Shown here one piece after another: positions 12,070 through 20,300 of a stretch of 24,826 nt of DNA (position 1 is the stretch's first letter; each line of letters opens with the position of its first letter). The stretch is from Clostridia bacterium (GTDB lineage: Bacteria > Bacillota > Clostridia > CAKSNL01 > HGM11501), in NCBI GenBank assembly GCA_030535815.1, contig JAUNRD010000001.1, positions 1 through 24,826 on the forward strand, written 5' to 3'. The position numbers and the translations under genes are program-made. Below the pieces are notes generated by a model, which saw only the letters and a list, made by a program, of their open reading frames with translations, had not been told where the DNA came from and did no database searches.

Positions 12070-12441
12070 TTAAAATCCTTTAGCCATAAGGTATTCCTTT
12101 AATTTTTCAAAGCTTTCTTCGCTTATGTGGTGCTCGATTTTGCAACTGTCCTCATAGGCGGTGTCTTCACTAACACCCATAGCCATCAGTGCCTTTGCGA
12201 TAATTCTGTGGCGCTCATACATGGTTTCTGCAATGGAAAGCCCCTTTTCCGTCAGGGTGATGCTGCCTGATGAATCAATTACAATAAAGCCCTCCTCACG
12301 AAGCTTTTTCATTGCAACGGAAACGCTGGGCTTGGTAACAGAAAGCTCGGTTGCTATGTCAATACTTCTGACGTGGCCGTGTTTTTTATTAAGCATATGT
12401 ATGGTTTCGAGATAATTCTCGCCGGATTCTTTAATAATCAT
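12070..12441 (-). CDS. DtxR/MntR-family metal-dependent transcriptional regulator
   Basis: ENYLETI, wHTH RSIDIATELSVTKPSVSVAMKKL, YERH, DSCKIEHHIS metal-site motifs. Short form with no SH3/FeoA domain. Confidence 0.92.
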   Translation of the reverse strand: MIIKESGENYLETIHMLNKKHGHVRSIDIATELSVTKPSVSVAMKKLREEGFIVIDSSGSITLTEKGLSIAETMYERHRIIAKALMAMGVSEDTAYEDSCKIEHHISEESFEKLKEYLMAKGF

Positions 12442-12987: not shown

Positions 12988-15003
12988 ATGAGAATTGCTT
13001 TGGCAGGCAATCCCAACTCAGGTAAAACCACTATGTATAACGGCCTTACCGGAAAAAACGAAAAAGTAGGAAACTGGGCGGGCGTAACTGTTGACAAAAA
13101 GGAAAGTGCCATCAGGAAAAGTCTTTGTAACGGAGAGGAAGGGATAATCGCAGTTGACCTTCCCGGCGCATATTCAATGTCGCCCTTCACATCGGAGGAG
13201 AGCATCACAAGTATCTACGTTAAAAACGAAAATCCCGATGCTATTATAAACATTGTTGATGCTACAAACCTTAGCAGAAGCCTGTTTTTCACCACTCAGC
13301 TTCTGGAGCTTGGAATTCCCGTGGTTGTTGCATTAAATAAGAGCGACATCAACGAAAAAAAGGAAACAAAAATTGACACAAAGCTTTTGTCTGAGCTTTT
13401 GAACTGTCCCGTTGTTGAAACAATTTCCACATCGGCTGACGGACTTTCCGAGGTTGTTTCTGCTGCAATCGGCGTGATTGGAAAAGGACAGGAGGCACCC
13501 TACACCCAGGGGGACATCGACCTTACGGATAAAGCAGTGGTTGTTGCGGCAGACAAAAAGAGGTTTAACTTTGTAAACAAAATCGTTGCTTCTGTTGAAA
13601 CAAGAAAGGTTTTCACAAAAGACAAAAACTTCCAGGATAAGATTGATGCTGTTTTAACCAACAAATGGCTTGGTATTCCGATTTTCGCCGTTGTAATGTG
13701 GTTTGTGTTCTGGGTTTCCCAGGCTTGGCTCGGCCCTATGATTTCAGACCTTCTGGTTGGCTGGATTGAAGCTTTCGGCACTGTTGTTGACGGCTGGATG
13801 GAATCCTCTTCCTCCGAGCTTTTAAAAACACTTGTATCAAGTGCCATTGTTGACGGTGTAGGTGCCGTTGTAAGCTTTTTGCCCCTTGTTATGGTAATGT
13901 ATTTTATGATTGCCCTTTTGGAGGACTGCGGATATATGGCACGTGCAACAGTTGTGCTTGATCCCATATTCAAAAAGGTTGGTCTTTCGGGTAAATCCGT
14001 AATCCCCTTCGTTATCGGTACAGGCTGTGCAATCCCCGGCGTTATGGCGTGCCGTACCATAAGAAATGAGCGTGAAAGAAGAGCAACCGCAATGCTTGCA
14101 CCCTTTATGCCCTGCGGAGCAAAGCTTCCCGTTATTTCCCTCTTTGTAGGTGCTTTCTTTGCAGAGTCTGCCTGGGTTGGAACTGCAATGTACTTTGCAG
14201 GTATCGTAATCATCCTTCTCTGCGCACTTTTGGTCAACAAAATCACTGCCTATAAAGCAAGAAAATCCTTCTTTATCATAGAGCTTCCCGAATATAAATT
14301 CCCCAGTATAAAGCGTGCAGCACTTTCCATGTGTCAGCGTGGCTGGTCATACATAGTAAAGGCAGGTACAATTATTCTTGTATGTAACGTGCTTATAACG
14401 GTTTTAAGCAATCTGACACCTACCTTCAGTCTTGCGGCAGAAAACGGTTCAGATTCAATCCTTGCGTATATCTGCGGTCCCATTGACTGGATTATAATCC
14501 CCGTTATCGGCTTTGCATCCTGGAAGCTGGTTGCCTGTGCAATAACAGGCTTCATCGCAAAGGAAAACGTTGTGGGAACCGTGGCAACCTTGTTCGGTCT
14601 TTCTGCAGTAATCAACGGCGACCTTGAGCTTGTTGGCGAAGGAAGTGTTGTAGCAGATGCATTAGGACTTGTTCCCGCATCGGCTCTTGCTTATATGATG
14701 TTTAACCTCTTCACACCGCCCTGCTTTGCGGCAATCGGAGCAATGAATGCGGAAATGAAGAGCAAGAAATGGCTCTTCGGCGGTATCTGCCTCCAGCTTG
14801 GCGTTGGCTTTACCGTAGGATTTCTTGTATATCAGATTGGCACTTTAATCTCGGAAGGACACTTTGGAAATGGCTTTACAGGCGGACTTATTGCAATTAT
14901 CGTTATGGCGGCAATTGTAGTATACCTTTGCATAAAGTCTGATAAGAAGCTTAAAGCAGAATATGCTCTTAAGGCTGCCCAAAAGGCAAAGGAGAAGGTA
15001 TGA
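12988..15003 (+). CDS. feoB: Ferrous iron transport protein B
   Basis: G1 GNPNSGKT, VGNWAGVTV, DLPGAYS, NKSD, gate motifs GTGCAIPG, PFMPCGAKLP and PPCFAAIG. GAGGAGG SD. Confidence 0.96.
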   Translation: MRIALAGNPNSGKTTMYNGLTGKNEKVGNWAGVTVDKKESAIRKSLCNGEEGIIAVDLPGAYSMSPFTSEESITSIYVKNENPDAIINIVDATNLSRSLFFTTQLLELGIPVVVALNKSDINEKKETKIDTKLLSELLNCPVVETISTSADGLSEVVSAAIGVIGKGQEAPYTQGDIDLTDKAVVVAADKKRFNFVNKIVASVETRKVFTKDKNFQDKIDAVLTNKWLGIPIFAVVMWFVFWVSQAWLGPMISDLLVGWIEAFGTVVDGWMESSSSELLKTLVSSAIVDGVGAVVSFLPLVMVMYFMIALLEDCGYMARATVVLDPIFKKVGLSGKSVIPFVIGTGCAIPGVMACRTIRNERERRATAMLAPFMPCGAKLPVISLFVGAFFAESAWVGTAMYFAGIVIILLCALLVNKITAYKARKSFFIIELPEYKFPSIKRAALSMCQRGWSYIVKAGTIILVCNVLITVLSNLTPTFSLAAENGSDSILAYICGPIDWIIIPVIGFASWKLVACAITGFIAKENVVGTVATLFGLSAVINGDLELVGEGSVVADALGLVPASALAYMMFNLFTPPCFAAIGAMNAEMKSKKWLFGGICLQLGVGFTVGFLVYQIGTLISEGHFGNGFTGGLIAIIVMAAIVVYLCIKSDKKLKAEYALKAAQKAKEKV

Positions 15004-15176
15004 CGGACATAATCATCGGTGCAGTATTGGTAATAATCGTCGGGCTTGCCGTATTCTATATAATAAAAGAAAAGAAAAAAGGCAAAAGGTGCATAGGCTG
15101 TCCCGACGGCGGATGCGATTGCTGTTGCAGCAACCCCGGCAAAGAAAAATGTAATCATAAAAGCTCTGCGGAATAA
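15000..15176 (+). CDS. FeoB-associated Cys-rich small membrane protein (58 aa; absent from the ORF track)
   Basis: ATGA overlap with the feoB stop. Translates as MTDIIIGAVLVIIVGLAVFYIIKEKKKGKRCIGCPDGGCDCCCSNPGKEKCNHKSSAE. Confidence 0.88.
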   Translation: MTDIIIGAVLVIIVGLAVFYIIKEKKKGKRCIGCPDGGCDCCCSNPGKEKCNHKSSAE

Positions 15177-15182
15177 TAAAAA

Positions 15183-15213
15183 TCCCGTGCCGTTAGCGGC
15201 ACGGGACTTTTTT
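15183..15213 (+). terminator. Intrinsic terminator after the feo operon
   Basis: TCCCGTGCCG-TTAG-CGGCACGGGA followed by CTTTTTT. Confidence 0.88.
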
Positions 15214-15232
15214 GAGTAAAAAACAAAATTTG

Positions 15233-15261
15233 TTGATTTTTTTGTCGATATATGATATACT
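15233..15261 (+). promoter_or_regulatory. Putative sigmaA promoter of the SPFH-TIR cassette
   Basis: TTGATT-N17-TATACT with TG extended -10, about 40 nt before ATG 15302. Confidence 0.65.
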
Positions 15262-15301
15262 GGGAAAAATACTTTTAAATATATTTTTAGGGGGATTTAT
15301 A

Positions 15302-17218
15302 ATGGGTAAATTTGCATTGGAATGTCCTAAATGCGGAAGCTTAAATACAGCATCAACATTTTTTCTGGCAAGAAAGGTGATTCAGTGCGGAACTTGCGGA
15401 GATGAAATAAATGTCGGACAGTCCCGAATGATTTCAAAAAGATGTTCAAAGTGCGGAAAAGTAGTTGTATGCGACCAGGCAAAAATGCGCAATAAAAAGT
15501 GCCCTTCCTGTGGTGAAGCGTTTGGAATTTCGAATGCAACTGCTGAATATGCACTGGCGACAATCAGCTGTCCTCAGTGTTCTTGTCAGATTGAGGTAAA
15601 CAAGAAACAGGAAACCGAAACATGTCCTGTATGTGACAGAATTATAAACGTAAAAGAGGCTATTGCAAAGGCGGATTTGGTGTCTCCTGACGGTATAAGC
15701 GTAATTAAATACGAGGGAGATAACAGCACATTTATCTGGAAGCATCCCATAGAAGATTTTAACATGGGCTCCCAGCTTATAGTACATGAATCCCAGGAGG
15801 CTATATTCTTCCTTAACGGAGAAGCACTGGATACTTTCGGACCCGGAAGACATACACTGGAAACCGAAAATCTTCCTGTACTCAAAAGAACATTTAAGCT
15901 CCCTACAGGCGCGCAGAATCCCTTCCATGCGGAAGTTTATTTCATAAACAAAACCGTTCAGATGGGCGTTAAATGGGGAACCGATTCAAGAGTAAGATTC
16001 ATAGAACCCAATACAGGAATCCCTATGGATATCGGAGCCTCCGGTGAAATGAACCTTCAGGTTTCTGATGGAAGAAAGCTTCTTATAAAGCTGGTGGGAA
16101 CAACTAATGGCTTATCCCGTGGTGGCATAGGAGCTGTTGTGGGAAGTGAATCTGCCGGAACGCCCAAGAATCATATGGAGGCAGAAGAATATAATAACGG
16201 CTGGACAAATACTCTTAACGGAATGTTCAGACCTCTTATCAGAACTACGGTAAAGACACATCTTGCAACTGCCATCAAGGCGCAGAATATAAATATTCTT
16301 GAAATTGATGAACATCTTGAAGCTTTGTCAGCCACATTAAGGGAGAAAATCTCGGAAGGCTTTGAGGAATACGGTCTCACAGTACCTCAGTTTTATGTAA
16401 CTAATGTTTCGTTGCCTGAAGGTGGACCCCTTGACAAAATCAGAAATTTACTTGCGGCTTCTTATCTCGGTGTGCGTGAGGCTGAGGTTAAAGCAGATAT
16501 TACTGCGGCAGAACGTAAGATAAGCATTGAGAAGGCAATAACCGAGACAGAGCTTGCGAAATTTGAGGCAGAAAGAACACGTATTGCTGCGCAGGCTGAA
16601 GCGGATAAGAGGAAATATGAAGGCTTTGCCGAAGCAGAAGTAATGGCGGCTCAGGGATACAGCCAGAAGGATGTATTGCAGACCGAAGTGCAGAAGGCTT
16701 ATGCCGAAGGTATCGGAAACATGGGCGGCTCAGGCGGCGGCAGCGGCGTTGCGACCGATGTGATGGGTCTTGGTTTAGGACTTGCGGCAGCAGGCGCACT
16801 GGGCGGTCAGGTTGGCGACGCTCTCAAGGGCTTTTCGCCAACTGCCAATTCAAGTGCACCGGGGGCTGCACCCGTATCGGATGGCTGGGATTGTAGCTGC
16901 GGAGCTAAAGGCATAAAAGGAAAGTTCTGTTCCGAATGCGGAGCACCCAAGCCTGAAGTGTGGGATTGTCCTTCCTGCGGAGCAAAGGGTATAAAAGGAA
17001 AGTTCTGTTCCGAGTGCGGTACTCCCAAGCCCGAAGCATGGGATTGTCCTTCCTGCGGAGCTAAAGGAAATAAAGGTAAGTTCTGCTCTGAGTGCGGAAA
17101 GCCGAAAGATGCAGCAGGCAAAGAGGTAAATGAACAGGCCTGGGACTGCAGCTGCGGAGCCAAGGGCATAACAGGAAAATTCTGCTATGAATGCGGAGCA
17201 AAAAAGGAGGATAATTAA
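15302..17218 (+). CDS. SPFH/Band-7 (YdjI-like) protein with 3 N-terminal Zn ribbons, coiled coil, Gly-rich segment and 4 C-terminal Cys4 repeats
   Basis: Core WKHPIEDFNMGSQLIVHESQEAIFFLNG...GPGRHTLETENLP...EVYFIN...KWGT. Six N-terminal CxxC pairs, an Ala/Glu-rich coil, WDC..CG..KFC.ECG repeats. GGGGG SD before ATG 15302 (638 aa). Confidence 0.85.
   Translation: MGKFALECPKCGSLNTASTFFLARKVIQCGTCGDEINVGQSRMISKRCSKCGKVVVCDQAKMRNKKCPSCGEAFGISNATAEYALATISCPQCSCQIEVNKKQETETCPVCDRIINVKEAIAKADLVSPDGISVIKYEGDNSTFIWKHPIEDFNMGSQLIVHESQEAIFFLNGEALDTFGPGRHTLETENLPVLKRTFKLPTGAQNPFHAEVYFINKTVQMGVKWGTDSRVRFIEPNTGIPMDIGASGEMNLQVSDGRKLLIKLVGTTNGLSRGGIGAVVGSESAGTPKNHMEAEEYNNGWTNTLNGMFRPLIRTTVKTHLATAIKAQNINILEIDEHLEALSATLREKISEGFEEYGLTVPQFYVTNVSLPEGGPLDKIRNLLAASYLGVREAEVKADITAAERKISIEKAITETELAKFEAERTRIAAQAEADKRKYEGFAEAEVMAAQGYSQKDVLQTEVQKAYAEGIGNMGGSGGGSGVATDVMGLGLGLAAAGALGGQVGDALKGFSPTANSSAPGAAPVSDGWDCSCGAKGIKGKFCSECGAPKPEVWDCPSCGAKGIKGKFCSECGTPKPEAWDCPSCGAKGNKGKFCSECGKPKDAAGKEVNEQAWDCSCGAKGITGKFCYECGAKKEDN
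16886..17218 (+). repeat. Four in-frame tandem coding repeats (75, 78, 102 and 78 nt units) encoding W-D-C-x1-2-C-G-x6-K-F-C-x2-C-G
   Basis: Units start at 16886, 16961, 17039 and 17141, with high DNA similarity and mostly synonymous differences. Confidence 0.95.
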
Positions 17219-17220
17219 TC

Positions 17221-17934
17221 ATGAACGGAACAAAATCTTCTAATAATATCAATAATCTGGCAATTATTATCGGTTTGGTTTTTGTGGCATATAATGCCGT
17301 GGTTTTTGCCCTTTGCGGATTTGCTGATCATAATGCATCTTTTTGGATTTCAATAGTATTTGCGAATGTTTCTTTGATTTCTGTAACAGTATGCGCTTTT
17401 CTGCTCAAAGGAAAAAAACTTGAGCCCAGAGACTGGATGATGGGATACCCCTTTTACAGACACGGAATAATTTATGTAATTACCGAATTGGTTTTGTCTG
17501 TAATATTTATGGTAACAGATAAACAGGGATTGCCGTGGTCAATAGCGTTTGTGGTTCAGTTTATTGTTATGATAGTTTTCGGAATTATTATAATAACCTG
17601 CTTTATGGCTAAAGATACCATAGAGGAAGTGCGGGAAAAGGTAAAGGTAAATACTGCTTTTATGAAAATGCTTTTGGTAGATGCTGATATGCTTGTGGAG
17701 CAAACAGAAGCTCCTGAACTTAAAAAGGTATTTTCCGAATTACGCGACCAGATAAGATATAGTGATCCTGTAAGCAACGAACAGCTTGCAGACCTTGAAG
17801 GAAGACTGGCATCTCAGGTTGATACCATAAAGGTCAACATGACGTGCGGAAATACAGAGGGAGCATTGGACAGCTGCAAACAGGCAATGCTTCTGCTCAG
17901 TGAACGTAACAGAAAATGTAAGTTGCTCAAATAA
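17221..17934 (+). CDS. Uncharacterised membrane protein: 4 predicted TM helices plus a C-terminal helical domain
   Basis: Four hydrophobic segments in the first ~130 aa, then an amphipathic helical region with IRYSDPVS. AAGGAGG SD; 2 nt after the SPFH stop. Confidence 0.8.
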   Translation: MNGTKSSNNINNLAIIIGLVFVAYNAVVFALCGFADHNASFWISIVFANVSLISVTVCAFLLKGKKLEPRDWMMGYPFYRHGIIYVITELVLSVIFMVTDKQGLPWSIAFVVQFIVMIVFGIIIITCFMAKDTIEEVREKVKVNTAFMKMLLVDADMLVEQTEAPELKKVFSELRDQIRYSDPVSNEQLADLEGRLASQVDTIKVNMTCGNTEGALDSCKQAMLLLSERNRKCKLLK

Positions 17935-17998
17935 ATGAGAGAAACTGCTCATTTAATAAGCAGATATGAAATTAAAAACGATCCCGCCATATTGATTT

Positions 17999-18370
17999 AT
18001 GGCGGGATTAGGCTTATTCATTGCATATATTTTACTGGAGGATGAGGAAATGGTAGTGGTTGTAATAGCGGTTATCTGTGCGATAGCGGCGGTGATGATA
18101 TACGTTGTAAATAATAAGTCGGCAAAGGATAATGCTGTGCAGAGTGCAGAAATCGGACATATGGAAACTGAAAACGCAAATATCATACATAAGTCGGCAA
18201 CAGATTATATAAATGCGGCTAAAAGCGTGTGCGATAAAGAAGAAAACTTATCGCAATATGCTGCTAAGAGCAATGCGGCAAAGGCAGAAAATGATGCAAA
18301 GACAGCGCTTGAGGCCTGTGCCAGAGAGAAAGACAAACTTAAAGAATTGCTCGGCACATTGAACGTATAA
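17999..18370 (+). CDS. Small membrane-anchored helical protein (start uncertain: 17999, 18050, or frameshifted from 17935)
   Basis: Hydrophobic MVVVVIAVICAIAAVMIYVV followed by an Ala/Lys-rich helical region; co-oriented between the cassette genes. Confidence 0.55.
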   Translation: MAGLGLFIAYILLEDEEMVVVVIAVICAIAAVMIYVVNNKSAKDNAVQSAEIGHMETENANIIHKSATDYINAAKSVCDKEENLSQYAAKSNAAKAENDAKTALEACAREKDKLKELLGTLNV

Positions 18371-18396
18371 GAATTTTGTAAAATGGGGGATTTAAC

Positions 18397-20217
18397 ATGG
18401 GGGTAGTACATTGTAAAATGTGCGGAGGCGCATTAAATATAGTTGAAAATGTAAGCGTGGTCACGTGCGAATTCTGCGATACGCAACAGACTATACCGAC
18501 CGTAGATGATGAAAAAATAGCACAGCTTTTCGAGCGTGCAAATTATTACCGCTTGAATAATGAGTTTGACAAAGCGGCTGTTATATACGAAAATATAGTT
18601 GGCGAAAAAAACAATGAAGCGGAAGCATACTGGGGAATGTGCCTTTGTAAGTACGGAATTGAGTATGTGCTTGATGAAAAGACAAATAGAAGAATACCCA
18701 CCTGTCACCGTACACAGTTCAAATCAATTCTCGAAGACACGGACTATAAAAAGGCAATAGAAAACTCGGACCTTTTATCAAAGCGTGTGTATGAAGAAGA
18801 AGCTTCGTATATTGACAGCGTACAGAAGGGCATTTTATCAATATCTTCAAAAGAGGAACCCTTTGATATATTTATCTGTTATAAAGAAACGGGAGAAAAT
18901 AATCAGAGAACGATTGACAGCGTGCTGGCGCAGGATATATATACAAAGCTTACCGACGAAGGCTATAAAGTGTTTTTTGCCAGAATAACACTTGAAGACA
19001 AGCTGGGAAAAGCGTATGAACCTTATATTTTCGCTGCACTTAACAGTGCAAAAGTAATGTTGGTTGTAGGCACAAAACCGGAACATTTCAATGCCGTATG
19101 GGTAAAAAATGAATGGAGCAGATATGTTGAGCTCATCGAACACGGAAAAGATGTTGCACTTATTCCGTGCTATAAAGATATGAACCCCTATGAATTGCCC
19201 GTGGAGTTTGCGGCATTGCAGGCGCAGGACATGGGTAAAGTGGGCGCTATGCAGGACCTTATCAGAGGGATAAAGAAAATCCACAATATTAAAGCAACAA
19301 ATGAGTCTGATAATGCAGGAGTAAAAAGCGAAATTGACATAAGCAATCTTATGAGCGGAAATGCAGGCTCTGTTCTGAAAAGAGGATATATTTATCTTGG
19401 AGAAGGAGATTTTGCAAGAGCGAAAGAATGTTTTGAGAAAAGTCTTTATATGAGTCCTGAATTGGGTGCGGCTTACTGGGGTATTGTACTGGCTATGGCA
19501 AAGTGCAAGAGCAATGACGATATGATTTCACGGGGAAGAGCCATCCCCAACAGCTCGGCATATAAGAGTGCCATGGGCTTTGCTACCCCTGAAGAGAAGG
19601 TAGAATACGATAGGGTTAAAGATGGAATCGTAAAGACTGTAGTGGGCACCATAAATAAGCTGCAGGCGAAAAAAGCTGAAGCTATAATAAAGAGCGGGGC
19701 TAAGGAAGCGCTGGCTAAAAGTGAGGCGTTTGTTGCGGGTGCGGCAAAAGAAATCCAGGATGGAATTAAGCGACTTAAGGAGATAGAAGCAGAACTGGCA
19801 AATTGCATTGAAACGTGTAAAGCAATGAATTCAGAAGCAATACAGAGTATAAAAAGGGACTTGGCTGTTGCAATAAAAATCAGAACAACCGTGGAAAGCA
19901 ACATGAAAATTGCTACCGGTGATTTGCAGGTATATAAAGACGAGTTTGAAAAATATGCCTCACAGATGAAAAACAGCGTTGAAAAAATAGCACAGAATAA
20001 AAAAGAACCGGCTTTTTCCAAGCTTTTTGCATTGACTGAAGAACAGACAAAAATCAGCGTTAGACTTTCGGACGGAATCCCCAAGGAAGCGTACGGATAT
20101 GAAAGACGTCTTTCTGATTTGGTGGAAGAGGTAGGGGAAATAGCGGAAAAATATAATAAAGCTATTAACGATGTCAAGACTGGAAATTATGATCTTGCAA
20201 AAGAGCTTCTCGGATAA
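18397..20217 (+). CDS. TIR-domain protein: Zn ribbon - TPR - TIR - TPR - coiled coil
   Basis: CKMCGG...CEFCD ribbon. TIR segment FDIFICYKE...LAQDIYTKLTDEGYKVFF...ALNSAKVMLVVGT...WVKNEW. Two TPR-like units ending in AYWG. Long helical C-terminus. Confidence 0.87.
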   Translation: MGVVHCKMCGGALNIVENVSVVTCEFCDTQQTIPTVDDEKIAQLFERANYYRLNNEFDKAAVIYENIVGEKNNEAEAYWGMCLCKYGIEYVLDEKTNRRIPTCHRTQFKSILEDTDYKKAIENSDLLSKRVYEEEASYIDSVQKGILSISSKEEPFDIFICYKETGENNQRTIDSVLAQDIYTKLTDEGYKVFFARITLEDKLGKAYEPYIFAALNSAKVMLVVGTKPEHFNAVWVKNEWSRYVELIEHGKDVALIPCYKDMNPYELPVEFAALQAQDMGKVGAMQDLIRGIKKIHNIKATNESDNAGVKSEIDISNLMSGNAGSVLKRGYIYLGEGDFARAKECFEKSLYMSPELGAAYWGIVLAMAKCKSNDDMISRGRAIPNSSAYKSAMGFATPEEKVEYDRVKDGIVKTVVGTINKLQAKKAEAIIKSGAKEALAKSEAFVAGAAKEIQDGIKRLKEIEAELANCIETCKAMNSEAIQSIKRDLAVAIKIRTTVESNMKIATGDLQVYKDEFEKYASQMKNSVEKIAQNKKEPAFSKLFALTEEQTKISVRLSDGIPKEAYGYERRLSDLVEEVGEIAEKYNKAINDVKTGNYDLAKELLG

Positions 20218-20255
20218 ATTAATTGCAGGGTCGGCGGTAAGATGATTTCATAAAT

Positions 20256-20300
20256 AAAAAAGCCTGTGAGCAACAGAATTCTGTGCTCACAGGCTTTTTT
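20256..20300. terminator. Bidirectional terminator between the TIR gene and cimA
   Basis: AAAAAAGCCTGTGAGCA / TGCTCACAGGCTTTTTT 17-bp stem enclosing the palindrome CAGAATTCTG. Confidence 0.9.

Follow-up and report, generated by a model that had tools for sequence, protein, structure and literature searches.

A TIR-domain protein encoded beside an SPFH gene in Clostridia, a candidate for a new membrane-linked immunity or stress module

TIR domains are common to animal, plant and bacterial immunity, and the bacterial systems known to employ them (Thoeris, SPARTA, CBASS-TIR and SpbK) are cytosolic. In this study I analyse P0001, a TIR protein of 606 amino acids (aa) encoded on the plus strand of a 24,826-nucleotide stretch of DNA from a Clostridia bacterium (contig JAUNRD010000001.1), which as a whole is called the window below. 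Its gene shares a small cassette with genes for a flotillin-like SPFH protein of the Band_7_1 family and for a protein with four transmembrane (TM) helices, the 4-TM protein. A literature search of incomplete coverage (TIR with SPFH/Band-7, transmembrane bacterial TIR, DUF6273, and SPFH in anti-phage defence) returned no description of the family of P0001, of the cassette or of a linkage between TIR and SPFH.

Two described systems come closest to the cassette as a whole. Thoeris, which consists of the TIR protein ThsB and of ThsA, resembles it in having a TIR domain with an intact Glu, in being a small accessory operon and in the frequent presence of several TIR paralogues, but the cassette has no SIR2/SLOG, Macro or other ThsA-type effector, and contains SPFH and 4-TM partners instead. 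An identity with Thoeris was rejected, because Pfam detects no ThsA-type effector and PADLOC gives no hit. The PspA-YdjG-YdjH-YdjI system of Bacillus subtilis (PMC8581546; PMC11237479) likewise has a Band_7_1 SPFH protein with zinc fingers and no TM helix, encoded beside a gene for an integral membrane protein. The cassette differs from it in lacking a PspA gene and a TPM-domain partner, in having a membrane partner that belongs to no Pfam family, in encoding a TIR protein instead, and in being an accessory insertion. As neither PspA nor a TPM-domain partner is encoded in the operon, the cassette is not a PspA-YdjGHI operon; no open reading frame (ORF) of the window matches PspA or TPM_phosphatase, the genome outside the window not having been searched for PspA. 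The 'Tir' that is mentioned in one of the papers on the B. subtilis system (PMC11237479) is the CesT/Tir chaperone and not a TIR domain.

Architecture and fold of P0001

The features of the TIR protein are the following, all on the plus strand.

18397..20217, +: TIR protein P0001, 606 aa, positions checked by script
18397..18501, +: Cys4 zinc ribbon (C6, C9, C24, C27), from Cys conservation and four short strands at aa 3-32 of the model
18511..18852, +: helical domain of TPR-like type, into which a beta hairpin (aa 88-103) is inserted and which ends in a long closing helix (aa 126-152), from the domain model
18856..19296, +: TIR domain, aa 154-300, from Pfam TIR_2, the VIA alignment and family conservation
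19111..19113, +: GAA codon of Glu239, in W235-x3-E239 on helix alpha-C, from script check, model and alignments
19363..19581, +: second TPR module, aa 323-395, preceded by a disordered linker (aa 299-319), from Pfam TPR_2, the CTPR match and the model
19588..20211, +: C-terminal long-helix or coiled-coil tail, aa 398-605, from model helices 398-477, 480-503, 510-532 and 538-594

P0001 is a cytoplasmic protein in which a zinc ribbon, a TPR module, the TIR domain and another TPR module are followed by a coiled-coil tail. It has no signal peptide, and a hydrophobic-window scan finds no membrane helix in it. A first-pass annotation of the window had proposed most of this arrangement, and the larger part of it holds. 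The TIR domain, placed there at about aa 156-295, is recognised by Pfam TIR_2 (PF13676) over aa 158-280 with 36.2 bits against a cut-off of 28 (E 1e-8), and aligns with the flax L6 TIR at a Z score of 16.2. By script, FDIFICY occupies aa 156-162 and WVKNEW aa 235-240, and the Glu expected at aa 239 is indeed encoded by the GAA at 19111-19113. The predicted coiled coil of about 200 aa at the C-terminus appears in the AlphaFold2 model as the long helices of aa 398-605. The N-terminal zinc ribbon is present as a Cys4 ribbon, but its Cys residues at 6, 9, 24 and 27 give the pattern CxxC-x14-CxxC and not the x15 spacing that had been read; C9, C24 and C27 are invariant in the family, and C6 is present in at least 90% of sequences.

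The same annotation saw two similar TPR units on either side of the TIR domain. The TPR fold class is found on both sides, and the motifs lie where they had been reported, FDKAAVIYENIV at aa 57-68 with EAEAYWG at aa 74-80, and FARAKECFEKSL at aa 339-350 with ELGAAYWG at aa 355-362 (all by script), which makes two '...AYWG' units spanning aa 57-80 and aa 339-362. The similarity itself is not borne out, as BLASTP between the two units gives no alignment, and their likeness therefore rests on short motifs and a shared fold class. Pfam TPR_2 matches aa 328-355 just above its cut-off (28.0 bits versus 27) and the second module matches designed CTPR chains (E 5e-4), while TPR_14 scores under its cut-off on the N-terminal TPR-like domain. 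NCBIfam yields for P0001 only sub-threshold coiled-coil noise.

The AlphaFold2 model of P0001 was computed from an alignment of 69 sequences and has a mean predicted local distance difference test score (pLDDT) of 83.4, with a full-length predicted template modelling score (pTM) of 0.49. It consists, from the N-terminus, of a four-stranded ribbon within aa 3-32, three TPR-like helices at aa 39-86, the hairpin of aa 88-103, the helix of aa 126-152, a complete TIR alpha/beta unit at aa 158-297, the disordered linker of aa 299-319, five TPR helices at aa 323-395 and the long helices of aa 398-605. W235 and E239 lie on the helix of aa 234-248, and the BB-loop region, aa 197-204, has a pLDDT below 50. 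When modelled in isolation, aa 1-155 yield a compact domain (pLDDT 89.9, pTM 0.85), whose best matches among solved structures are TPR proteins (3u4t, Z 10.3; 1na3, Z 10.0, with a root-mean-square deviation (rmsd) of 2.6 over 81 residues).

A Foldseek search of the PDB with the full-length model gave no match at E <= 0.001, its list being crowded by long TPR proteins, and this was resolved by the VIA alignment of aa 154-300. In that alignment the top structural matches are enzymatic TIRs: flax L6 (3ozi, Z 16.2, rmsd 2.0, 135 residues aligned), the SPARTA TIR-APAZ protein (8ifl, Z 15.8; identity 22-23%), RUN1 (7s2z, Z 14.5), SARM1 (9mw2, Z 13.7) and AbTir (7uxu, Z 13.6). The adaptor TIRs of MyD88 and MAL reach Z 13.5 and Z 13.3. 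As modelled, the domain is thus a true TIR fold and a member of the TIR superfamily; the flavodoxin-like TIR fold that the first-pass annotation had proposed to look for by structure prediction was obtained, with E239 on helix alpha-C at the catalytic position.

Compared with the enzymatic TIRs as a group (SARM1, AbTir/BtpA, L6/L7/RUN1/RPS4 and SPARTA TIR-APAZ), P0001 is alike in fold (Z 13.6-16.2, rmsd 2.0-3.0, 119-138 residues) and in the W-x3-E on helix alpha-C, but identity is only 12-23%, and none of them is flanked by a zinc-ribbon/TPR module and a second TPR module. WVKNEW aligns with WCQYEL of TLR15 and, weakly (E 1.2), with WCLMEL of flax L7. Glu239 is kept in 254 of the 254 relatives that have the TIR region, and the beta-A motif F-I-C-Y-K-E in about 250 of these. 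The pocket-lining motifs of P0001 are similar to those of SARM1 at the corresponding two sites in beta-A and alpha-C, which there read FISYRR and WVHKE. Mean column identity of the TIR domain within the family is 81%, versus only about 50% identity for whole proteins, which indicates constraint on the pocket and on several surfaces. By sequence and modelled fold, the P0001 TIR has the features of the enzymatic subclass and is a candidate NADase, an assignment that is partly supported.

A receptor-like family and its soluble variant

A protein-database search with P0001 returned at least 8000 matches, and among the matches listed all have E < 1e-138. For the more than 100 relatives listed there, similarity spans aa 1 to about 400 at 50-61% identity. 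By itself, the N-terminal segment of aa 1-152 matches 4724 clusters of a 50%-identity library, and in the AlphaFold DB the family's matches are unnamed or generically named proteins only. The sole relative that shares its full length with P0001, tail included, is P0005 (609 aa, 50% identity). Beyond the shared part the C-termini of the family vary, and comprise DUF6273, RCC1 propellers, BspA-type LRR_5, Listeria-Bacteroides repeats (Flg_new), RHS, TM2 and ankyrin.

In 68 of the 120 members analysed, a single hydrophobic helix follows the second TPR module and is itself followed by 120-450 more residues; the others divide into 8 with a C-terminal anchor, 12 with several helices and 32 without any, P0001 and P0005 among the latter. 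Members with the helix have on average 5.6 Lys and Arg in the 15 residues before it and 1.2 after it, an asymmetry from which, by the positive-inside rule, a cytoplasmic TIR module and an external variable domain follow. Judged from these sequences, the typical family member has the layout of a Toll-like receptor, inverted in chain order. Like most members, animal Toll-like receptors have a cytoplasmic TIR domain, one TM helix and an ectodomain that varies and is often made of repeats, leucine-rich ones included. They differ in order, since the TIR domain is N-terminal and the ectodomain C-terminal in the family, and in their ectodomain types, which are unrelated to the BspA-type LRR_5, RCC1 and DUF6273 of the family; common descent of the whole architecture is not implied by the likeness.

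P0001 itself has neither a TM helix nor an ectodomain. In comparison with the TM-bearing P0074, it is a soluble variant in which the coiled-coil tail replaces stalk, TM helix and ectodomain, and with P0005 it makes up a coiled-coil-tailed subgroup without TM helix. This variant, together with a clear insertion against near-identical relatives (below), is what the window newly adds to the family.

Other architectures were encountered as well. P0194 (461 aa), from the representative library, is a TIR-less variant in which the N-terminal zinc-ribbon/TPR module is joined directly to DUF6273. The genome of the window contains a second family member on another contig (G000, C355; L002:1-1059, minus strand) with 65% identity over aa 3-295. 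Past about aa 300 its frame enters a glycosyltransferase-like C-terminus and runs off the contig, and it may be an assembly chimera or a fusion.

The relative with a direct bearing on function is EUBELI_RS07950/C4Z355 of Eubacterium eligens, the one family member with a printed assay. Its printed sequence has the same layout as P0001, with zinc ribbon, TPR-like unit, TIR domain with WVKNEW and second TPR module (PMC9092222), and its assay is weighed in the last section.

Linkage, operon and insertion of the cassette

The association of the TIR gene with the SPFH gene extends well beyond the window. From a class sample of 300 genomes, evenly drawn, 22 carry the TIR module, the genome of the window included, and in 17 of the 21 others an SPFH (Band_7_1) gene lies within about 4 kb of the TIR gene on the same contig; two more are interrupted by contig ends. 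The two genes adjoin in all five loci inspected, which come from four genera, and a homologue of the 4-TM protein stands alongside in four of these, the fifth having an unrelated 144-aa multi-TM gene. Of the 22 TIR-positive genomes, 17 match the 4-TM profile, as do 10 of the 278 TIR-negative ones; these counts are a description and not a statistical test, as related genomes are not independent. A second organism has a long multi-finger SPFH protein (65% identity) and a 4-TM protein (43%) on one contig (NODE_589) and P0005 on another that begins at the gene. The two contigs come from one sample, have equal coverage and have ends that fit, and very probably represent one cassette.

Some loci contain tandem arrays of TIR paralogues, divergent TIR-only-like ones included. 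In one genome (L018:8040-9548; G024:C74) the 4-TM protein is fused to a fifth TM helix, repeats of the type Y..A..YKDS and a DUF6273-like end (GVRPCVWISLK), followed by four tandem TIR paralogues, from which it appears that the membrane partner of the scaffold can itself carry a surface domain. Among the neighbouring genes elsewhere, a variable third gene (L015:8101-8658; G009:C18) has the motif R-N-G-I-A-H and a weak HEPN match (pEK499_p136, E 2.2e-4, below cut-off), and a DEDDh exonuclease-BRCT protein, which matches the PADLOC candidate PDC-S48 (E 1e-36), is encoded right after another cassette (L019:5721-7427; G029:C44). Tyrosine recombinase (Phage_integrase) genes lie nearby, upstream of the SPFH gene, in two unrelated cassettes (L020:3958-4797 and L017:10554-11387).

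In the window the operon and its surroundings are composed as follows.

15125..20295, no strand: 5,171-bp insertion with the whole cassette, flanked by the feoB unit and by a LeuA-like gene in convergent orientation, from comparison with congeners
15183-15206: terminator-like hairpin before the promoter-like site, from sequence
15233..15261, +: promoter-like site TTGATT-17-TATACT with TG, before the SPFH gene, a pattern match from a consensus scan
15302..17218, +: YdjI-like SPFH (Band_7_1) protein, 638 aa, without TM helix (Pfam Band_7_1 E 2.3e-39; DZR)
17221..17934, +: 4-TM protein, 237 aa, with a cytoplasmic helical tail, from its TM segments; no Pfam family
17981..18008, no strand: hairpin with a perfect 11-bp stem between the 4-TM gene and the small ORF, overlapping the first possible ATG of the latter (17999)
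18050..18370, +: small variable gene P0004, about 106 aa from the ATG at 18050 (ribosome-binding site GGAGGA) or 123 aa from 17999, with one N-terminal TM helix and a helical tail
20262..20296, no strand: bidirectional terminator-like hairpin shared with the convergent LeuA-like gene, from sequence

As read from the sequence, P0001 is the last gene of an operon that is bounded by the terminator-like hairpins at 15183-15206 and 20262-20296. The SPFH protein has three N-terminal and four C-terminal Cys4 zinc fingers (Pfam DZR and translation), the latter being four tandem repeats of the form W-D-C-(P)-S-C...G-K-F-C-S-E-C-G at 16886-17218, and its 65%-identical orthologue in the second organism keeps the same fingers, all four C-terminal repeats included. 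The 4-TM protein, for which Atlas matches are hypothetical proteins only, is characterised by an invariant [RK][YF]SDP[VM]S and a C-terminal LSERNxxCKxxK (alignment A3). Prediction of a complex between P0001 aa 1-400 and the tail of the 4-TM protein (aa 130-237) scored 0.00, which, having been run without controls, is no evidence either way. The hairpin at 17981-18008 is followed by a T-run on the minus strand only, so that it looks like a terminator for the wrong strand. For P0004 no homologue was found at the same position in five related cassettes or in the sister cassette, and it is therefore not counted as a conserved component.

The cassette interrupts a gene order that is otherwise continuous in close relatives. 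In the congeners G002, G010 and G003 the spacing from feoB to the LeuA-like gene is 268, 174 and 190 bp, respectively, and FeoB of G002 is 99% identical to that of the window. Homology by blastn to G002 and G010 stops at 15124 and resumes at 20296; this break and the short spacing in all three congeners identify the cassette as a 5,171-bp insertion. At its borders, a search for terminal repeats of at least 10 nt found none. The comparison of sequences indicates that the cassette is horizontally acquired, and congeners that have a cassette carry it at other loci. The left border, 15125, cuts into the 3' end of a small membrane ORF rich in Cys (14963-15154) that overlaps the end of feoB, and the C-terminal residues of this ORF therefore differ from those in G002 and G010. 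Upstream lie genes for a DtxR-family regulator (12070-12441), FeoB (12988-15003), a PqqD-like protein and an OPT transporter, which together make up a neighbourhood for iron uptake that is unrelated to the cassette.

The P0001 gene has been seen in animal-gut metagenomes of at least 10 studies, and in another animal-gut sample a single 7.9-kb contig runs from feoB through the cassette to leuA, 59 differences separating it from the window. Two metatranscriptome libraries from the same study contain contigs that agree with portions of the TIR gene at 99% identity or above, a hint that the TIR gene of the cassette is transcribed; these contigs cover parts of this gene only, DNA carry-over is possible, and the uncovered parts of the cassette are uninformative.

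Possible functions of the cassette

The reading that I tentatively prefer, with slightly less than even confidence in it, is that P0001 is a latent NAD+-consuming TIR protein that is recruited to a sub-membrane platform of the SPFH and 4-TM proteins and activated by clustering on envelope perturbation. Its TIR domain would be a latent enzyme that either depletes NAD+ or makes a signal derived from ADP-ribose, and at rest the copies of P0001 would be held apart. YdjI of B. subtilis is soluble and depends on YdjG/YdjH for its membrane localisation (PMC8581546); by analogy, the SPFH/4-TM pair would build the platform, which in turn may recruit P0001 via its N-terminal module, its coiled-coil tail, or both. 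Envelope perturbation, most plausibly phage attack, would then cluster the TIR domains head to tail, with a loop from one TIR completing the W235/E239 pocket of its neighbour, as in the assemblies of SARM1, AbTir and plant TIRs; NAD+ would be broken down and growth arrested. A conflict system is suggested by the insertion itself, the other loci in congeners, the patchy presence in 22 of 300 genomes, the tandem paralogues, the swappable C-termini and the recombinase, HEPN-like and PDC-S48 neighbours.

Several observations weigh against this proposal, and some of them would be expected under other explanations. Searched against the sequences of the PDB, the TIR profile has just one significant match, the TLR15/TLR2 TIR (E 3.4e-4), which has the same Glu, and the adaptor TIRs of MyD88 and MAL, which form filaments, match nearly as well in structure as the enzymes do (Z 13.3-13.5); the conserved Glu is necessary but not sufficient, and cannot serve to tell enzymes from adaptors. 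The isolated TIR domain of the E. eligens relative gave no NAD+ product in two constructs (Weagley et al. 2022, PMC9092222 Table S2), and because of this result the same authors labelled metagenomic TIRs of the core family 'Inactive', as a prediction (PMC9092222). These findings agree with a non-enzymatic TIR domain that acts as an assembly module, as in Toll-like receptors, MyD88 and MAL, with oligomers linking paralogous receptors, the SPFH platform and an output, and with the Glu kept for structure or for an interface. The near-total conservation of the surface would fit scaffolding by multiple interfaces, and the tandem paralogues, including the divergent TIR-only-like ones, could co-assemble. 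I nevertheless consider such a scaffold unlikely, as the top structural matches are enzymes, the pocket-lining motifs resemble those of SARM1, no Glu substitution occurs in 254 relatives although TIR-less variants such as P0194 exist, and the cassette encodes no downstream kinase-like or other output partner. The E. eligens domain is, by eye, divergent at sites that are invariant in the core family (FICYKE to YISYRA, D174 to V, LQAQD to LKVCQ), and it was assayed without flanking modules or partners (PMC9092222), and for these reasons its negative result weakens the enzyme model but is not a refutation. The claim of the first-pass annotation that P0001 is an autoinhibited NADase and not a passive adaptor thus stands as regards the TIR fold, the Glu at the catalytic position in all 254 relatives and the enzymes as top matches, and is contested by the same Glu in Toll-like receptors and by the inactive relative; autoinhibition by the TPR modules is no more than a possibility at a full-length pTM of 0.49. 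That annotation considered the protein by itself, leaving aside the SPFH/4-TM operon, the insertion and the mostly transmembrane relatives.

A further set of objections concerns the immune role and not the enzyme. PADLOC has no model at E <= 1 for P0001, and for the SPFH, 4-TM and small proteins it returns nothing but noise, at E above 0.05; Pfam finds no SIR2, SLOG, Macro or nuclease domain in the cassette, so that no effector for a TIR-made signal is recognisable; the flanks in the window are housekeeping genes and not a defence island; and among the SPFH operons that have been studied, the closest, pspA-ydjGHI, acts in envelope stress and not in immunity. The cassette might instead be a module for envelope stress or membrane organisation, related in function to PspA-YdjGHI, in which the TIR protein tunes metabolism or membrane repair in response to surface cues that reach it through ectodomains in the TM paralogues and through the SPFH/4-TM pair here. 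The SPFH protein is of the YdjI family and shares with YdjI the zinc fingers and the absence of a TM helix, the ectodomains of relatives are typical surface or adhesion modules of Gram-positive bacteria (BspA-LRR, Flg_new, RCC1), and the organism inhabits animal guts. I regard this as doubtful, because the operon has no PspA gene, its 4-TM protein does not have the TPM domain reported for YdjH (PMC11237479), the recent insertion, absent from the nearest relatives and present in 22 of 300 genomes, fits a dispensable accessory trait, and the paralogue arrays and the recombinase, HEPN-like and PDC-S48 neighbours elsewhere point to conflict. A TIR domain in an animal-gut bacterium could also suggest a host-directed effector of the Tcp type, like TcpB/BtpA and TcpC, released against Toll-like receptor signalling of the animal. 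This is disfavoured as very improbable, since P0001 has no signal peptide or TM helix and begins with a ribbon of the cytoplasmic Cys4 type, the positive-inside rule puts the TIR module of relatives in the cytoplasm (5.6 versus 1.2 Lys and Arg), and the operon partners are membrane-scaffold proteins and not a secretion system.

An extension of the preferred reading, an NAD+-consuming TIR protein on an SPFH platform, would make the family a bacterial counterpart of Toll-like signalling. Through their swappable surface domains the TM paralogues would sense ligands outside the cell, phage particles or other cells for instance, the TM-less copies of the P0001 type would serve as cytosolic adaptor or executor, and all would co-assemble by TIR-TIR contacts on a raft-like SPFH platform, with E239-dependent NAD+ chemistry as the output. 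I think it improbable that the whole of this scheme applies, but if true, it would amount to a bacterial receptor-adaptor TIR pathway with an SPFH scaffold as its signalling hub.

The family stands out in that a TIR domain, apparently located beneath the membrane and in most cases connected to a variable surface domain, is linked genetically to a flotillin-like SPFH protein, and it comprises thousands of sequence clusters in gut and rumen Clostridia. On the strength of its sequence features, the cassette is a good candidate for a new membrane-linked immunity or stress module, and P0001, being free of TM helices, is the easiest member of the family to express and assay. Should its TIR domain prove active, sensing at the membrane or surface would through this family be coupled to NAD+ chemistry, either as a new input to immunity or as a new output of envelope stress, and the family would offer a testable parallel to the receptor-type TIR signalling of animals.

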